Under the pieces are notes generated by a model. That model searched no databases. It saw nothing but the letters and a program-made list of their open reading frames with translations, and was not told where the DNA came from. Positions 20,659 through 27,593 of a stretch of DNA of 64,000 bases are shown here, in pieces. The stretch comes from Minisyncoccota bacterium (GTDB lineage: Bacteria > Patescibacteriota > Minisyncoccia > Phycocordibacterales > UBA5272), in contig JAXLZS010000001.1 of NCBI GenBank assembly GCA_046350775.1, forward strand, positions 416,342 through 480,341. The letters are read 5' to 3'. How positions within the stretch are numbered: the stretch's first letter is position 1; every line of letters begins with the position of its first letter. The translations under genes and the position numbers were made by a program.

Positions 20659-21084
20659 TTATTCTGTACCTTCTTCTAGTACTTCGTCTTTCAATTCTGC
20701 TGTAGTGACACCGTCTTTCTTTACGAATTTTGTGTCAGCTTTTAATTTTCTTCTTACATCTCTCACTGCTTTTTCACGAACATAGTAGAGCTTGCTTCTC
20801 TTTGTCTTTGCATGTCTGACTATTTCGATCTTATCGATATTTGATGAATATAGAGGATAAATTTTTTCTACTCCCACCCCTGAAGCAACTTTTCTTACAG
20901 TAAATGTAGCAGAGATATCTGTACCATGCTTTCTAGCAAGTACGAGACCCTCGAAAGCCTGGAGACGAATTTTTCCGTCTTTATCTTTCAATTTATTCCA
21001 AACTCTGACAGTGTCTCCACTTGCAAAGTTTAGAGATTTTCTCTCTTCCATATCCACCTTTGATAATTTGATATTTGTTTTCAT
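20659..21084 (-). CDS. rplS: 50S ribosomal protein L19
   Basis: GDTVRVWNKL...RLQAFEGLVLARK...FTVRKVASGVGVEKIYPLYSSNIDKIEIV matches L19, with a short C-terminal extension. Confidence 0.85.
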   Translation of the reverse strand: MKTNIKLSKVDMEERKSLNFASGDTVRVWNKLKDKDGKIRLQAFEGLVLARKHGTDISATFTVRKVASGVGVEKIYPLYSSNIDKIEIVRHAKTKRSKLYYVREKAVRDVRRKLKADTKFVKKDGVTTAELKDEVLEEGTE

Positions 21085-21258
21085 ATTTTAATATTAATAA
21101 AAAATCTTTTACAAAATTTAAAGTTATTTTTTGTGAGAAACTACCGCGACAATTAATATTTTTGTTCTAATAAATGCGATCTAAACTCAGATTTTTTACC
21201 TTAAATATTTCCTATTTAATTCATAGATATTAACACAAAATAGGATTAAAGGCAAACC

Positions 21259-22071
21259 TTATATTTTGTAATTTAATTCTTCCAATACCTTTTTCATATC
21301 AGGATGCTCTTTGGCGACAAAAGTCTTTTGTGAAGTAGAATTATCATCTTCCACGATTTTTATAGATAAAGAATAAGCGTGTAGCATCGGACGAGTGAGT
21401 TTAGTTTTAAATTCTGATTGGATTTTTTCTTGCTGCATCTCTCCTACACCATAGAGATCATCCCCAAGTATTGGATGACGGATTGATTTGAGATGAACTC
21501 TAATCTGATGAGTTCTACCTGTCTCTGGATAACACTCAACAAGAGTGAAAGGATTTCCTTTTTTATTACGAAGTCTAGCTATGACTTTGTATCTAGTCAC
21601 CGCATCCCTCTCCTTTCCCCTCACATCACCTTTTCCGTCATTTGTAAAAATATCTTTAGTATTCTTTTTTCTGAAATCAGATTTACTTCTTGCTATCGGA
21701 GCATCAATGATACCAGTCTCATTTTTTACATGACCGACTACGATAGCATGATAAATCTTTTTGGTTGTGTGTGCTTGAAATTGCTTTTTTAGAAAACCAA
21801 AAGAAGCTCTATTGAGAGCAAAGATCATGACGCCTGTTGTCCCTGTGTCGAGACGATGAACAACCCCTTCTCTATCTTCATCACCTACACCTTTTAAGAT
21901 AGTCTGCCAAGTTTTCTTTTTAAACTTTGTTTTGACAAAATCTTTTAACCAATCAGCCAGAGTATATTCATCCTTTCTGCCATCAGAGTGTGTCATAATA
22001 CCAGCTGGCTTGTCTATTACCAGTTCATTTTTATTTTCAAATATTATCTTGATTTTGGGGATTTTCTTCAT
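21259..22071 (-). CDS. RluA-family pseudouridine synthase
   Basis: Catalytic HRLDTGTTGVMIFA motif (Asp in HRLD). 270 aa. Confidence 0.75.
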   Translation of the reverse strand: MKKIPKIKIIFENKNELVIDKPAGIMTHSDGRKDEYTLADWLKDFVKTKFKKKTWQTILKGVGDEDREGVVHRLDTGTTGVMIFALNRASFGFLKKQFQAHTTKKIYHAIVVGHVKNETGIIDAPIARSKSDFRKKNTKDIFTNDGKGDVRGKERDAVTRYKVIARLRNKKGNPFTLVECYPETGRTHQIRVHLKSIRHPILGDDLYGVGEMQQEKIQSEFKTKLTRPMLHAYSLSIKIVEDDNSTSQKTFVAKEHPDMKKVLEELNYKI

Positions 22072-22128
22072 AAAAAAGATTTGCGAAAAATTTAAATTTA
22101 GGGTATTATATCATAATAAAAAATAAAA

Positions 22129-22204
22129 GGGAGATTAGCTCAGTTGGTAGAGCAACTCGTTTACACCGAGAAGGTCAGAGGTTCGAGTCCTCTATCTCCC
22201 ACCA
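22129..22204 (+). tRNA. tRNA-Val (UAC); integration target of the downstream element
   Basis: 7-bp acceptor GGGAGAT/ATCTCCC, D-arm TAGCTCAGTTGGTAGAGCA, anticodon loop TTTACAC, T-arm GGTTCGAGTCC, 3' CCA. Confidence 0.85.
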
Positions 22205-23711
22205 GAATAGTACTTAGCGGTTTCTTCGAAACCAAGGTATGGGACGCACGAAGTGCGTCCCACTGTGTTTGCCCTGATTTTGCGGGGGAATTCTGAAATG
22301 CGGGTGCGCTTACGCGCACCTGTTTTTCGCCAAGAGAAAGGTTCGAGCCAAAGATTTCTTTGGCTTTGACCTTTTTAGCAAAAAGGTCAGTATCCCGTGC
22401 GATTCCGTCTAGTGTTTGCGCGTCTTTTATCCATTCTTTCATCGGTTCGAGCCAATCATTCTGTTTTTGTAGAACTGAAGATATTTTGTCTTCGAGCGAC
22501 TTCTTTTCGGATAACAATTTAGCTTTTTGTACACGATATATTTCCTGTTCAATCACTTGGTCTAAATATCCATTAAGAAGTCGCTCTAGTTTCACATTGA
22601 TTTTCAAAATATCTTTTTTCACTTCTTCTACAAAAACAGAATTAGACTGGGCAGAATTGTTGAAATCCTTTTCCGCCATTTTCAACAATTCTTTTGCCCA
22701 GTCTTTAGGCAAAGAAACTTTTTGAATTTCGGATGATATCTGCTGATCCAAAATTTCACTGCGAATATATCCTTGTGTACATTTGATACTTTTGTTTTTC
22801 TTGGAACAACGATAGTACACATGACCTTTTTGGATTTCAGCAGTTATCATCATTCCGCATTCGGTGCAGTGAAGTAGTCCGCAAAATGGTTGTGGCTCAT
22901 TTTTTGGTTTTCTATCGGGTTGTCCTCTAAATTTCAACATCGACTGCGCCGAATCAAAAAGTTTCTTTGCTATGATTGGCTCGTGCTTACCTTCGTGGAT
23001 TTCACCACCATATTTGAATAGTCCGATGTAAAATGGATTTGAAAGAATAAAAGACGCTTTGGTTTTTGAGATTCTCTTTCCGGTTCTTGTTGTAACGCCG
23101 GATTTCGCCAAAAAATTTGCAATATCTTCCAGTCGTTGATTACCTTTTACATATCGTTCAAAAGCCAAGCGCACAATTTTAGATTTTTTCTTGTCCACGA
23201 CTATGGTCTTGGTACGACTGTCATTCATATAACCGAGTGGCGCTTGGCTTGGAAATATTCCCATTCTCACTTTTTGGCGAAGTCCTCGTCTCGTATTTTC
23301 TGAAAGAAAATCTACATAGTATTTGCTTTGCACAAATGCCATGGAAAGTGAAAATTTCCCTTGTGATGTATTTTCAAACCAAAAAGTGGGAAATTTTAAC
23401 ATCGCAAGAGTACCGATGTCGATAAAATACACTATCTGTCCGCCGTCCACAGAATTGCGCGCTAGTCTGTCGGGATGCCAAGCCAAAATTCCTGAAGCTA
23501 CCCCTTGCTCAATTTTTTTCATCATACTGTTAAATATTGGACGACCTGGAATTTTGGCGGATTGTTTCTCGACCAACTCCTCAACTATCTCTAAACTTTG
23601 TTCACGAGCAAACGCGCGCAATTCCGTTAACTGTGCCTCAATACTCAAAACCTGCTTATCCTCGACATCGGTACTCTTGCGAGCATACAAAAAGAATTTT
23701 TGTGATGACAT
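22161..23711 (-). CDS. large serine recombinase (resolvase/invertase catalytic domain + recombinase domain + zinc ribbon)
   Basis: N-terminal FFLYARKSTDVEDKQVLSIEAQ (catalytic Ser), a Cys cluster CGLLHCTECG...YYRCSKKNKSIKC and a coiled-coil C-terminus. The last ~55 codons run through repeat A and the tRNA-Val 3' end and may be non-coding read-through. Confidence 0.8.
   Translation of the reverse strand: MSSQKFFLYARKSTDVEDKQVLSIEAQLTELRAFAREQSLEIVEELVEKQSAKIPGRPIFNSMMKKIEQGVASGILAWHPDRLARNSVDGGQIVYFIDIGTLAMLKFPTFWFENTSQGKFSLSMAFVQSKYYVDFLSENTRRGLRQKVRMGIFPSQAPLGYMNDSRTKTIVVDKKKSKIVRLAFERYVKGNQRLEDIANFLAKSGVTTRTGKRISKTKASFILSNPFYIGLFKYGGEIHEGKHEPIIAKKLFDSAQSMLKFRGQPDRKPKNEPQPFCGLLHCTECGMMITAEIQKGHVYYRCSKKNKSIKCTQGYIRSEILDQQISSEIQKVSLPKDWAKELLKMAEKDFNNSAQSNSVFVEEVKKDILKINVKLERLLNGYLDQVIEQEIYRVQKAKLLSEKKSLEDKISSVLQKQNDWLEPMKEWIKDAQTLDGIARDTDLFAKKVKAKEIFGSNLSLGEKQVRVSAPAFQNSPAKSGQTQWDALRASHTLVSKKPLSTILVGDRGLEPLTFSV
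22202..22331. repeat. inverted repeat A (left copy, about 130 bp, hairpin-dense)
   Basis: Its reverse complement matches 23901..24030 at about 93% identity. Differences fall in a hairpin and are compensatory (ggtgcgc...gcgcacc vs gtacgcgc...gcgcgc). Confidence 0.8.
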
Positions 23712-23728
23712 ATATTTTTCTATAAAGC

Positions 23729-23797
23729 AGAAATGGCTACTCCAGTGCTGTAACCTTAACGTAAGTTAAGATATCTGAAATAGCCATTTCTGCTAAC
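23729..23797. promoter_or_regulatory. imperfect palindrome upstream of the recombinase gene (candidate operator/recombination-site-like)
   Basis: agcagaaatggcta ... tagccatttctgct is a 14-bp outer stem, with an inner cttaac-gtaa-gttaag palindrome, immediately 5' of the recombinase start. Confidence 0.35.
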
Positions 23798-23900
23798 TTA
23801 CTAATAAAATGGTTACAGCAAATATATTCTACCAAAAATTCTTTTTGTATCCAAAGCAAATACTGAATTTGTATCGCACGGGATTCCGAACCTCCTCCTC

Positions 23901-24030
23901 GGCGAAAAACAGGTACGCGCAAGCGCGCCCGCATTTCCGAATTCCCACGCAGAATCAGGGCAAACACAGTGGGACGCACTTCGTGCGTCCCATACCTTGG
24001 TTTCGAAGAAACCGCTAAGTACTATTCTGG
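23901..24030. repeat. inverted repeat A' (inverted copy of A)
   Basis: See repeat A. Directly abuts repeat B. Confidence 0.8.
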
Positions 24031-24262
24031 TGTCTCTATTGTACCAAGCTCGAACGATTTTCCAAAACCGAACCTAATCGCACATCCGTGCGCTAAAGCG
24101 CCTCTGTGCGAAACACAGAGCTTTTGCAAAGCAAAAGGACGGATATGCGAAATGCAAATGCGGAACGCGAGCGAAATTTTGCGAAATACTGGGGGTGTGG
24201 GGGAAAGTATTTCGCAAAATTCGCTTCGCGTGCTTTGGGATTTTTTTGGCGGGGCGGGCGGT
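24031..24262. repeat. inverted repeat B (232 bp, 100% identical inverted copy at 25870..26101)
   Basis: A perfect match over 232 bp containing at least 5 hairpins, e.g. ctctgtg-cgaaa-cacagag, cttttgc-aaa-gcaaaag and a 19-bp stem gcgaaattttgcgaaatact/agtatttcgcaaaattcgc. Confidence 0.85.
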
Positions 24263-24293
24263 ATCAAATAGAAAAAACCAATTCTGTTTTTTT

Positions 24294-25725
24294 CTATTCA
24301 ACATCAACAATCAAAACATCATAAGGATTAAAAGCAATATAATCAAAAAGATTCACTTTAGTATCCGTTCTTGTTTCTTCGTTTTCATTTTGCTTTACCC
24401 ACACACCGTCATATTTACCTCTCCATTCTTGTGAATCTTTTGGATTAGCCCAATAGTTTGGTTTGGAATCAAAAATTTTGAAATTTCTACCATTAACAAA
24501 AACTTTATACGGTTTAGAAGTCTTACCTTCAATTTTTCTACCCTCGTGATGATGCTTTGCTTCTTCTTCATTTCCGAAAAATACACCAACTTCAAATTCA
24601 TTTCCGTCTATTTTCTTTTTTAGAAACAAATTCTTTAAATTTTTCAATATCAGTTTTTGAGCCAAGGATAGAAATTTGATCTGGATGAAAAACACTGATA
24701 ATTTTTTGTTTTGGTAATCCAAATTCTCGTCCTGAAACTGGATGTTTTTCAATATATTCTTCTCCCGAGATATTATTTATCACTGCATCTGTATTTTCTA
24801 ATTTTTCATCGAACTTTGGGGCTAATATATTCTTTTCTTTTTGCTTACCTATTTTAAACAAAGCTTCAGACAAAGGCCTGTCCATATCATCCACATATTC
24901 ACCTGAAGTATTGACCTCAATAGGATTATTGATATTCAAAATTACAGCATACGCATTTTTTCCGTATCTTTTAACAAAATTCTGACTTGTACTGAAATTA
25001 TAAACACCTTCAATGCTATTAAGCGTATCAAAGTTGGGCTTTGTTGGTTTAAAATTCTCATCTTTAAATTCATTATCAGAATAGTGCCAGACAATATCTT
25101 GCACTTTGCTTTCAGGAAAAATAGTTTTTAGATATTCACAATAAAGCTCAACTGCTTCTTTTGTCTCAAATTGTTTAACTTTTTCTTTTATTTGTTCTTT
25201 GGCTTTTTGTAAGTTCTCAAAATTACCAACTTTATCTTGAACATCATCAAGGTTAATATAATTTCGTTCTATATTTTCGGGAATAATATAGTTATCATTT
25301 TCAACATCCATTTGCGAAGCGATTGGATGTTTACTTACATGTAGATTTTCAAATTCTTCTTTTGGCACTTTTACAACTACCAAATTTGCACCCTCAACTC
25401 GCTTCGCCTCTGTGCCAAATGTCTGTTGTGATTTTCGTAAATATACAAGAGCAGTTTCTAAATCTGGCGAAAACCATTGACCCTTTAAATCTTTATGGGA
25501 AGTTACTCCATCAGGTTCTTTCTCAATATTTTTATTTTCAATACGATAAAGGGAAATGGTTTCGCCAGATTTTGTTGCTTCTACTGCAATACTCTCAAGT
25601 TCAGGGCTAAGTTTAAAAACCTCTTGTATATTTTTCTCCTGTTCAGAAAGCGGAAAATGCTCAAGCGGTTGCTCGGTTTTTGGCAATTCAATTTTATCAA
25701 CAGGATTAACTGGTGACTTTTCCAT
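24294..25725 (-). CDS. cargo protein of unknown function, about 475 aa if a +1 frameshift in an A6 run at ~24614 is corrected (ORF track splits it into 375 aa and 152 aa)
   Basis: The ...EFVSKKENRRK* frame and the FLKKKIDGNEFEV... frame differ by one nt inside ctaaaaaag. No recognisable catalytic motifs. Confidence 0.45.
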
Positions 25726-25869
25726 AAAGTGATTTTAACATTTTTCGCTTTCTTTTTCTAGTTATTTTAGGGAGCAGAATTTGTGCGCGAACGGGAGGGT
25801 GGGTCAAGCACAAACTGATTTTTGTATCTCGGCTTCGCCGAGATTTCAATGTTATGTATTTGAATTATA

Positions 25870-26101
25870 ACCGCCCGCCCCGCCAAAAAAATCCCAAAGC
25901 ACGCGAAGCGAATTTTGCGAAATACTTTCCCCCACACCCCCAGTATTTCGCAAAATTTCGCTCGCGTTCCGCATTTGCATTTCGCATATCCGTCCTTTTG
26001 CTTTGCAAAAGCTCTGTGTTTCGCACAGAGGCGCTTTAGCGCACGGATGTGCGATTAGGTTCGGTTTTGGAAAATCGTTCGAGCTTGGTACAATAGAGAC
26101 A
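25870..26101. repeat. inverted repeat B' (right terminus of the element)
   Basis: Reverse complement of 24031..24262. Ends at ...caatagagaca, followed by chromosomal caaaaatac. Confidence 0.85.
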
Positions 26102-26110
26102 CAAAAATAC

Positions 26111-26138
26111 AAATAAAAAAGCAAACCATAAGGTTTGC
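26111..26138 (-). terminator. rho-independent terminator
   Basis: Hairpin gcaaacc-ataa-ggtttgc preceded by an A-run on the plus strand (a U-run on the minus strand). Confidence 0.45.
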
Positions 26139-26156
26139 TGATCAGACAATTTTTTA

Positions 26157-26324
26157 TTAAATCCCTCTCCTGCGATTATATCTTACTGCCAGATTGTTTG
26201 CTAAGGATTCTCTGAATCCTTTACTAGAAACCTGACCTTTTTGATGGTTTGTGATTTCATCCTTCAGTTTATGAAGAAGCACATCACTAGGTGAAAGATT
26301 AAAATATTTTTTTTTGTTAGCCAT
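26157..26324 (-). CDS. small hypothetical protein (55 aa)
   Basis: Manual translation MANKKKYFNLSPSDVLLHKLKDEITNHQKGQVSSKGFRESLANNLAVRYNRRRGI. Confidence 0.3.
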   Translation of the reverse strand: MANKKKYFNLSPSDVLLHKLKDEITNHQKGQVSSKGFRESLANNLAVRYNRRRGI

Positions 26325-26414
26325 TAACTAATTGGTTTATATGTTAAAAAATATAAATAGTCTATTTATTAATAGTAGCACATATAAAATTAAAAGTCAA
26401 TAGCTAAAAGCCTT

Positions 26415-26963
26415 TTATTTCTTAGCTGTTTTTACTGTGTAATCTAGAGGATTTTTACTAGTAAAAATATCCAGAGCGAGTCCTACAGCAAAATCACCAT
26501 AGCTATATCTGTCCCCTTTTCTTATCTTTTCTGTGAGGAATCTGATATCTACCCCGGCTTTTACAAGAGATCTCATCCAAATATCAATAGCTGACATTGT
26601 AGCGTTGTGAGAAAGGGTTCTGGCTGTATCTTTATCTTTTAATTCAAGTTTATACCAAGTCAAATCACTTCTGTCTGCTGAAGCTGCTAATTCATGATCT
26701 ATAATACTTCTAAGATAATTGAAAGAATGCTTAACCACAGAGTTAAATGTTTTTTGTGTGACCTCTGAGACTTTACTAATATCCTTTAATTCTGATGCTC
26801 TTTTAGGAAGATTCTTAATCAATTTTTCTAACTCAGTATTAGGAGTTCTTAAAATCTTAGACACATCAGAGATGGTACCTTTTTGATGAGTACTCATTAG
26901 ATGATCGAACTTTCTAACCAAAACTTCTGGTGATTCGCTTTTTAAAAATGATTCTCTAAACAT
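26415..26963 (-). CDS. hypothetical protein
   Basis: 182 aa with no recognised motif. Confidence 0.3.
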   Translation of the reverse strand: MFRESFLKSESPEVLVRKFDHLMSTHQKGTISDVSKILRTPNTELEKLIKNLPKRASELKDISKVSEVTQKTFNSVVKHSFNYLRSIIDHELAASADRSDLTWYKLELKDKDTARTLSHNATMSAIDIWMRSLVKAGVDIRFLTEKIRKGDRYSYGDFAVGLALDIFTSKNPLDYTVKTAKK

Positions 26964-27047
26964 AATATGATTATATAATACTTTTTTAAAAATAAAAAAT
27001 ACAGCTTTATTTTTCTATCAAAATCTGTTATATTTATTAAATTCAAT

Positions 27048-27119
27048 GATCTCATAGTTCAATGGATAGAACGAGAGCCTTCTAAGCTCTAGATGATGGT
27101 CCGATTCCATCTGAGATCA
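27048..27119 (+). tRNA. tRNA-Arg (UCU)
   Basis: Acceptor GATCTCA/TGAGATC, D-arm TAGTTCAATGGATAGAAC, anticodon loop CTTCTAA, T-arm GATGG-TCCGATT-CCATC. Confidence 0.75.
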
Positions 27120-27137
27120 CAAACTTTAGCTTTTGTT

Positions 27138-27593
27138 TTACAAATGGAATTTGTATGACAATTCATTGTATTCTTTTGTATCATATAATTTAATTCCAGA
27201 TTCGTGCCATAAAGCAAAATATTTAACTCCGTTATCAAGTGCTAATCTACTACAGACCGTACAATAAGGCTCTCCAGATTTTAAAATATTATTTTGATCA
27301 TCAACTCTTGTAAAATATAAAATACTTCCAGATATATCTTTTTTGTTTTTAATCGCATCTATTATAGCTCTCCATTCTGCATGGATACAGCAAGTCCTAT
27401 CTGATTTTGGCTTAGAAGAGTTTATTAAATTTAAATGACATTTTCTATTAGCTATATCATTCACTGCTGGACCGTTAAAACCTCTTCCAATAATTTCATT
27501 ATTTAATGACACAATAGCTCCACATTTATCTTTGAGACAAAGAGCTTTTTCTGCTTCTTTGGCAGCTTCTTTAAAATAATCCTCTTTATTCAT
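27138..27593 (-). CDS. CMP/dCMP-type zinc deaminase (TadA/ComEB-like)
   Basis: CIHAEWRAI (HAE) and PYCTVCSRLAL (PCxxC) zinc-binding motifs. 151 aa. Confidence 0.65.
   Translation of the reverse strand: MNKEDYFKEAAKEAEKALCLKDKCGAIVSLNNEIIGRGFNGPAVNDIANRKCHLNLINSSKPKSDRTCCIHAEWRAIIDAIKNKKDISGSILYFTRVDDQNNILKSGEPYCTVCSRLALDNGVKYFALWHESGIKLYDTKEYNELSYKFHL

Follow-up and report, generated by a model that had tools for sequence, protein, structure and literature searches.

The DNA analysed here is a stretch of 64,000 nucleotides (nt) from the genome of a Minisyncoccota bacterium (Patescibacteriota; GenBank assembly GCA_046350775.1, contig JAXLZS010000001.1, positions 416,342 to 480,341), hereafter the window. 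It contains a small recombinase element (22129-26109) that runs from the 3′ end of a tRNA-Val gene through repeat arm A, a large serine recombinase gene, the contiguous arms A′ and B and a cargo segment to the outer arm B′. Two open reading frames (ORFs), of 375 amino acids (aa; ORF1) and 152 aa, which an earlier note on this DNA had described, lie on the minus strand of the cargo segment. That note took the two for one protein of ~475 aa, split by a single-nucleotide frameshift in a run of A residues. We arrive at a different reading: ORF1 is likely to be a complete ADP-ribosyltransferase (ART)-like protein followed by the dead tail of a third module, the gene having been cut by a deletion of ~605 nt and not by slippage in the A-run.

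The two ORFs overlap around a run of six A residues (A6), which lies at 24616-24621 and not, as had been stated, at ~24612-24617. Removing one A does fuse ORF1 and the downstream frame into 476 aa, as the earlier note had calculated. A search with this fused sequence against 5.8 billion clustered proteins returned 81 matches, which fell into two different protein sets, one aligned to residues 1-370 and the other to residues 367-476. No protein among the 81 joins the ORF1 part directly to the downstream part, and an in-frame protein of ~476 aa is absent from the 5.8 billion. In an alignment of 38 ORF1 relatives (A2), most end 2-13 residues past the conserved '...ILGSKxDIEKFKEFVSK'; examples are P0003 (370 aa; FVSKN), P0059 (FVSKK), P0015 (FVSKNENN) and P0053 (FVSKNENKKDK), each followed directly by the stop. 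The C terminus of ORF1, '...FVSKKENRRK' and then the stop, conforms to this pattern and so ends at the family norm, and ORF1 is 100% identical to a database protein (P0001) from an NCBI metagenome-assembled genome named 'Candidatus Paceibacterota bacterium'. Judged by its relatives, ORF1 is a complete protein with the commonest architecture in its family: a leader, module 1, an ART-PolyVal-like module and a short basic tail.

According to the earlier note, the protein had no recognisable domain. Direct Pfam and PHROGs scans indeed gave no usable match for ORF1 or for the fused protein, but the fold became recognisable through structure prediction, which the note had proposed as a check, and through homologs. 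In the AlphaFold (AF2) model of ORF1, whose mean predicted local distance difference test score (pLDDT) is 79, residues 1-20 are disordered and the leader is helical; a long helix (169-199) separates two alpha/beta modules, module 1 (about residues 52-165) and module 2 (about 205-372). Among viral models, Foldseek matched it to phage 'PolyVal ADP-ribosyltransferase' or ART-PolyVal-like proteins (E 3e-6 to 1e-3); matches in the PDB were weak but concordant (PARP4, E 0.017). Some homologs exceed the curated cut-off (31.2 bits) of PF18760, the Pfam family ART-PolyVal: P0055 (32.2), P0005 (34.2), P0058 (31.6), P0084 (40.2) and P0095 (39.7 bits). A PDB profile search with the C-terminal module gave only noise, and PADLOC and NCBIfam scans of ORF1 and family members yielded nothing usable, with no PADLOC system matched.

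ART-PolyVal domains are defined by a His in strand 1, a Tyr in strand 2 and an Asp in strand 5 (Iyer et al. 2017, PMC5512222). In module 2, which has the ART fold in the model and by its relatives, H214 is nearly invariant across A2 and stands in predicted strand 212-216 (VWHYS); Y242 stands in predicted strand 242-245 (YNFS), at a family column that reads [YF]F[ST] in A2. The third residue of the candidate triad is probably D312, whose surroundings ('TDAVINNIS') correspond by motif to the family's 'YDGVI' (P0029: DVDGVINNI). D312 and E323 are both conserved in ORF1's subfamily. On the model and the relatives together, the C-terminal half of ORF1 is predicted to be an ART-PolyVal/PARP-like ADP-ribosyltransferase fold. 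Two results count against this assignment: PF18760 itself finds neither ORF1 nor the fused protein at E<=1, and the acidic residue of strand 5 is ambiguous, being D312 by motif and E322/E323 by MAFFT alignment, which puts the family Asp at E323. As for real catalytic activity, we put its chances just short of even.

The downstream frame has homologs of another kind. They cover only the last 107 codons of the 152-aa ORF, close to the ~105 aa that had been thought joinable to ORF1; the remaining codons are the 3′ end of ORF1 read out of frame. In 15 proteins (P0034-47, ~300-330 aa; P0043; P0004, 708 aa; P0005, 554 aa), the 107-residue piece is the C terminus of a longer unit. There, ~190-600 residues always stand before it, including the nearly invariant LDENGEPLLLYRGTDF (alignment A3), and the conserved region of ~215 residues that precedes it ends in 'LDENGEPLLLYRGTDFxPxxxGKFxIPKK' (A3). 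PF18760 matches nine of ten intact third modules from profile position 1, starting at DENGEPLLLYRG (best E 1.6e-5). The piece in the window starts ~27 residues downstream of the start of that match, and the first strand and the YRG motif (profile positions ~1-25) are absent. It also shows the substitution L37P; the Leu at this position does not vary in the ten-sequence alignment A4, and in A3 the window is the sole exception to it. Because a model of the intact third-module protein P0037 was too poor to use (mean pLDDT 55, and 30-43 across the ART-like part), the claim of a truncated domain rests on the coordinates of the hidden Markov model and on conservation. By these measures, the downstream 107 codons are a 5′-truncated ART-PolyVal-like module, a decaying remnant, which is probably untranslated or non-functional.

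The junction itself explains how the frame was lost. In the window, its codons are GAA TTT GTT TCT AAA AAA GAA AAT AGA CGG AAA TGA. The linker of P0005 (locus L098) reads AAA TTT GTT TCA AAA AAA GAA AAT AGT GTT (K F V S K K E N S V), and the downstream site of P0037 (L092) reads AAA TTT GTT ATT CCA AAA AAG AAA ATT GAT GGA AAT GAA (K F V I P K K K I D G N E). The two sites form an imperfect direct repeat of ~25 nt that differs by a 2-nt indel (AT). They have in common the 12-mer AAAAAAGAAAAT (12-14 nt with (AG)), which begins on the first base of a codon in the linker and on the third base of a codon at the downstream site. To the left of this 12-14-mer the window has the linker form (TCT, no AT), and to the right it has the downstream form (ATA GAC GGA AAT GAA, synonymous with ATT GAT GGA). 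This places the crossover within the 12-14-mer, and its product was bound to be out of frame. Measured between fixed anchors, the window is shorter than L001 by 605 nt and than L098 by 599 nt, both 2 modulo 3. Given that the repeat copies are one base out of register, the deletion itself produced the frameshift. The A6 run is native linker sequence, because the linker of P0005 has it in frame (codons K K; the window's TCT AAA AAA GAA AAT encodes S K K E N, compare 'VSKKENS' in P0005), and the last three codons and stop of ORF1 (AGA CGG AAA TGA) are the remnant read out of frame. Reading A6 as A5 works only in the arithmetical sense that any 1-nt deletion near the junction would restore the frame.

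We propose that the ancestor was a longer three-part gene, or a gene pair like P0004/P0005, in which a helical region of ~200 aa and a second ART-PolyVal-like module would have followed the FKEFVSK linker. A crossover to the right of the 2-nt indel, within AAAAAAGAAAAT(AG), would remove ~600 nt and join frame 0 to frame +1. ORF1 would then stop after three out-of-frame codons, leaving 107 codons as a domain that lacks its first strand.

A second contig, L004, from an independent assembly in ENA (ERZ27282949), has a junction, A6 run and remnant identical to those of the window, which argues against the consensus error that the earlier note had offered as one explanation. The window and L004 differ at 104 positions, all of them at or above 25100, and at none in 24030-25099 (1,070 nt, comprising module 2, the junction, the remnant and arm B). 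This sharp breakpoint, at the conserved EYLKTIFPESKV at the start of module 2, shows a recent exchange of the 3′ half, consistent with the mosaicism of the family.

Several points weigh against the deletion reading. The identity of the 3′ 1,070 nt reflects recent common descent, so that L004 confirms the sequence but carries no information on how selection has acted after the deletion. The frame of the remnant remains open, and its derived changes (6 synonymous and 2 non-synonymous in the window lineage, 8 and 0 in the L001 lineage) are suggestive of decay, in a comparison that is underpowered and not significant and does not establish relaxed selection. No single sequenced relative has both copies of the repeat in perfect form, and the parent is for this reason pieced together from two different ones. 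Finally, an in-frame deletion of 606 nt followed by insertion of one A would result in the same sequence, although this takes two events where one suffices.

Among the alternatives, the least improbable is that of the earlier note, in which a change of one base in the A-run has disabled or switched a single gene of ~476 aa, whether as a sequencing error, a recent mutation or phase variation. It accounts for the restoration of the 476-aa frame by removal of one A, for a deficit of 605 nt that becomes a multiple of 3 when one is added (606) and for a downstream frame that is still open. We nevertheless consider it unlikely. The A6 is in frame and native in the relatives' linker, it recurs in the independent assembly L004 with no tract-length variant between that contig and the window, and neither an in-frame version among the 5.8 billion proteins nor a homolog with this domain junction was found. 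The third domain of the fused protein would lack its first strand and YRG motif, and because this ART-like domain is incomplete, the 'ON' form of a phase variant would gain nothing obvious. A tract of six bases is also short for a contingency locus.

Three other explanations fare worse. On AAA AAA G, a programmed +1 shift of the ribosome, or slippage during transcription, could yield a minor 476-aa isoform beside the 375-aa product: tRNA-Lys can re-pair from AAA to AAG, the stop is only four codons downstream and the remnant is an intact open frame. It is nonetheless very improbable, given that the two-frame arrangement occurs in no diverged relative but only in the window and L004, which are identical across the site, that the ORF1 frame has no canonical slippery heptamer and that homologs stop at the linker or continue in frame, with the fused domain truncated in any case. 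Frameshifting by −1 was dropped, as the −1 frame meets immediate stops. We give a similarly slight chance to two functional genes, ORF1 and a protein of ~110 aa initiated at the TTG in 'TTG TTT CTA AAA AAG'; a gene caller placed a 111-aa gene at the equivalent site on L004, but every matched protein with this module has at least 300 aa, and the piece starts inside the domain and carries L37P at an otherwise unvaried Leu. It is equally far-fetched that the remnant is kept as a silent cassette, with inversion of the repeat-flanked slot aiding module recombination and reshuffling the C-terminal modules of effectors: the extreme mosaicism of the family, the sharp window/L004 breakpoint and the opposite orientation of the cargo slot in the window and in a related locus, L094, would fit, whereas the 64-kb window holds a single remnant and no second copy or donor, no mechanism is apparent and ordinary homologous exchange between strains can yield mosaicism.

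The features of the locus are collected in Table 1.

Table 1. Features of the recombinase element and its cargo segment (positions in the window)
Feature	Position	Strand	Basis or remark
ORF1	24598..25725	minus	375 aa, open reading frame list; putative complete functional product
N-terminal leader of ~48 aa, MEKSPVNPVDKIELPKTEQ...NIQEVFKLSPEL	25582..25725	minus	homolog matches and alignment A2
Module 1, about residues 52-165	25231..25572	minus	alignment A5
Module 2, about residues 195-372, predicted ART-PolyVal / PARP-like fold	24610..25143	minus	candidate triad H214, Y242, D312
Proposed deletion junction AAAAAAGAAAATAG (minus-strand letters), including the A6 run	24608..24621	minus	relatives' DNA compared
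Putative third-module remnant	24294..24620	minus	107 codons and stop; 5′-truncated ART-PolyVal-like domain
Mechanical ORF of 152 aa	24294..24752	minus	first ~45 codons are the +1 frame of the ORF1 3′ end
5′ region of the cargo gene	25726..25869	minus	conserved in L001, L004 and L094; within the invertible segment
Weak promoter-like site in the cargo 5′ region	25760-25732	minus	
Arm B (inner) of the 233-nt perfect inverted repeat	24030..24262		contiguous with arm A′
Arm B′ (outer) of the 233-nt perfect inverted repeat	25870..26102		abuts chromosomal flank; attR-like junction ...gagacAC|aaaaata
Large serine recombinase gene	22161..23711	minus	Pfam: Resolvase, Recombinase, Zn_ribbon_recom
Arm A of the 146-nt inverted repeat (92% identical) around the recombinase gene	22200..22345		5-nt overlap with the tRNA-Val 3′ end
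Arm A′, partner of arm A	23887-24032		
tRNA-Val	22129-22204		

The family to which ORF1 belongs is highly mosaic. Its leader recurs in proteins with unrelated downstream modules (P0055, P0064, P0069, P0036 and P0070-72 match query residues 1-48 only), and the other modules of leader-bearing proteins include zincin-like ones and ones named GNAT in their source. Module 1 has the invariant motifs YRIEN...F...HV...MDVExDN..P (alignment A5), has no Pfam match, no PDB sequence match and no profile similarity to the ART module, and is found alone (~140-160 aa) as well as within large proteins, from P0100 (735 aa) to P0095 (2263 aa). Its YRIEN / WFS / DVENDN motifs might hint at an ART of the R-S-E type, a guess that we do not advance as a claim. 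Across 1.84 billion representatives, an exhaustive search with phmmer turned up 635 relatives (E<=1e-3). Modules 1 and 2 each also occur alone, and both occur within proteins of roughly 0.7-5 thousand aa that carry ART-PolyVal, AAA_33/Zeta-like kinase or PD-(D/E)XK domains. Polyvalent proteins combine several unrelated effector domains in one polypeptide, are encoded by phages or conjugative elements and are delivered together with the DNA of these (Iyer et al. 2017, PMC5512222); by domain content, the combination of modules 1 and 2 with other effector domains in the large relatives is the polyvalent-protein pattern.

From the fold and the family we infer that ORF1 may be an NAD+-dependent ADP-ribosyltransferase effector that acts on a non-self or conflict-related target. 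The earlier note had guessed at a conflict-type function for the cargo of a site-specific recombinase element, and both halves of that guess agree with what we found: the cargo position holds and the family is toxin- or effector-like. The 1.6-kb slot contains no second gene or immunity-like partner, and none accompanies the ortholog in locus L005 either. Because no immunity gene stands beside ORF1, a target outside the producer's own essential machinery is favoured. The weakest step is this choice of target, which might be a phage component or a component of the host cells of these episymbionts.

The ORF1 gene lies between the end junctions of the element, beside the recombinase gene and in a slot whose cargo varies among related loci. 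The repeats B/B′, described earlier as a perfect 232-bp pair, are perfect over 233 nt and are inverted, not direct. The reading frame of the recombinase spans arm A and continues into sequence antisense to tRNA-Val. Similarity among recombinase relatives reaches to about residue 511; the repeat arm thus supplies the codons for the final ~50 residues, and an inverted copy of this coding sequence lies upstream of the gene. The A′B unit (23880-24270) is GC-rich (52%, against 31% for the window), and at its internal A′|B junction it has, intact but inverted, a copy of the attP-like junction that can be reconstructed from both ends of the element around the dinucleotide AC. On either strand, the folding of the unit is much stronger than that of shuffled controls (z −4.8 and −7.0), with several hairpins that have UUCG- and GAAA-type loops and no Rfam match; DNA sites and RNA are both possible. 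An Rfam scan of 21000-27500 found two tRNAs and nothing else, and the 64-kb window has no paralogous cassette or donor copy of the cargo gene elsewhere.

More than 500 relatives of the recombinase occur in Patescibacteria genomes; we compared 80 of their loci (L012-L091), drawn with the recombinase on the plus strand. Most share one layout. A tRNA gene of varied identity (Val, Leu, Arg, Gly, Met, Tyr, Thr, Ile, Ala, His, Gln, Lys, Glu or Asn) converges on the recombinase gene in about 60 loci, the other contigs being mostly too short to show it. In about 60 loci, too, the recombinase gene is flanked by an A/A′ pair (~77-200 nt; mostly 93-100% identical, lower in a few), whose arm A overlaps the 3′ end of the recombinase gene and, where both are seen, the 3′ end of the tRNA by 4-5 nt. 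Roughly 25 loci with enough flank have a B/B′ pair (mostly ~110-405 nt, with an identity of mostly 97-100% and less in a few) that brackets 1.0-3.7 kb of cargo, with the inner arm B against or near A′. The cargo varies by locus (a LexA-DNA methylase fusion, DUF4238, Schlafen AlbA_2, methyltransferases, a glycosidase, a PPDK_N protein and unknowns), and its orientation relative to the recombinase is mixed. Full-text literature searches found no description of this double-inverted-repeat layout. In three small Patescibacteria genomes, two diverged copies of the recombinase lie on different contigs: L019/L068 (VGJV01), L078/L080 (JAZDDW01) and L042/L062 (CAYXSS01). In the sole pair with both tRNAs visible, these are different genes (tRNA-Leu in L019, tRNA-Glu in L068).

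Comparison with the cargo of homologous recombinase islands, another check that the earlier note had suggested, found no ART-family member at E<=1e-5 in the 80 recombinase loci, but did find one in the slot of L094 (GenBank MFKC01000075.1), in the opposite orientation (window 24030-26102, L094 1732-4497). The two slots share the cargo gene family and the conserved 5′ region, and from their opposite cargo orientations it follows that the slot was inverted during evolution. Homologous recombination between the two arms could account for such an inversion, and so could the recombinase. In loci L005-L011, the ortholog P0003 (83% identical to ORF1) starts 11 nt after tRNA-Val (for example, L005 2681-3873), with the same downstream neighbours (pseudouridine synthase, L19) and with neither a recombinase nor GC-rich repeats. 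The gene, standing beside tRNA-Val without a recombinase, is thus not bound to the element. Relative to the flanks of L005-L011, the block from tRNA-Val to the element is inverted in the window; L005 may represent a decayed element or the ancestral state. Just outside B′, a terminator-like hairpin with a T-run (26120-26139, minus strand) lies downstream of a 55-aa ORF (26157..26324). This hairpin makes chromosomal read-through into the cargo slot unlikely, and the cargo gene probably uses its own promoter-like site, which lies inside the invertible segment.

For annotation, these results imply one intact 375-aa ART-PolyVal-like gene and a pseudogene fragment, with no 'repair' to 476 aa. The ORF1 gene adds a small new member to a known family that is highly mosaic. 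The case indicates that polyvalent-type ART modules, known from phages and conjugative elements, also circulate as small, mosaic, leader-tagged proteins of Patescibacteria, which are sometimes the sole cargo of tiny tRNA-integrated recombinase elements. The lack of an immunity gene beside the ART points to a non-self target (phage or host cell). A bolder idea, which we regard as improbable, is that the slot is an actively invertible, exchangeable cassette site, in which truncated modules feed recombination that diversifies leader-tagged ART effectors in episymbiotic Patescibacteria. If true, it would amount to shufflon-like diversification of effectors, with a large serine recombinase or its long inverted repeats as the driving force. 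The widespread double-inverted-repeat recombinase layout is probably a more valuable lead than the question of the split gene, and merits a study of its own.

Each part of the locus resembles, and departs from, a known system. Like known direct-repeat deletions, which arise by replication slippage or illegitimate recombination, the proposed deletion has 12-14 nt of identity at both presumed endpoints, one copy left and ~600 nt lost; it differs in that the copies lie in different frames, which would have trimmed a three-part protein to a two-module form and silenced its tail. With homopolymer contingency genes, the locus shares an A-run at the point of frame change, whereas its 6-base tract is native to a linker, has no length variants and would give, as 'ON' product, a fusion with a truncated domain. 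The leader of the ORF1 family resembles the constant N-terminal region of polymorphic effectors.

Phage PolyVal ARTs are the structural neighbours of ORF1. It shares with ART-PolyVal proteins the fold, the positions of the His (strand 1) and Tyr (strand 2) and a modular build with one or several ART copies. By contrast, ORF1 is short, has two modules, falls below the Pfam threshold and has module 1 and a family-specific leader of ~48 aa. Unlike polyvalent proteins, it is encoded not on a phage or conjugative element but on a recombinase element of ~4 kb in a Patescibacteria chromosome; the element consists of the recombinase and ORF1 genes only, with no virion or conjugation genes near ORF1. 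Sequence identity to ARTs of the PARP and diphtheria-toxin types (the H-Y-E clade), including AcrF11, is 4-14%. In comparison with PARP, the third acidic residue of ORF1 is probably Asp ('D[GSA]VI' motif) and not Glu, and helical regulatory or other accessory domains are missing.

The element as a whole resembles the known elements of large serine recombinases (phage-type integrases) in its Resolvase, Recombinase and Zn-ribbon domains, its position at a tRNA 3′ end, its attL/attR-like junctions around AC and its varied cargo. It differs from them in two respects: the recombinase and cargo segments are each bracketed by long, nearly perfect inverted repeats, and the interior of the element has a copy of the attP-like junction that is intact and inverted.

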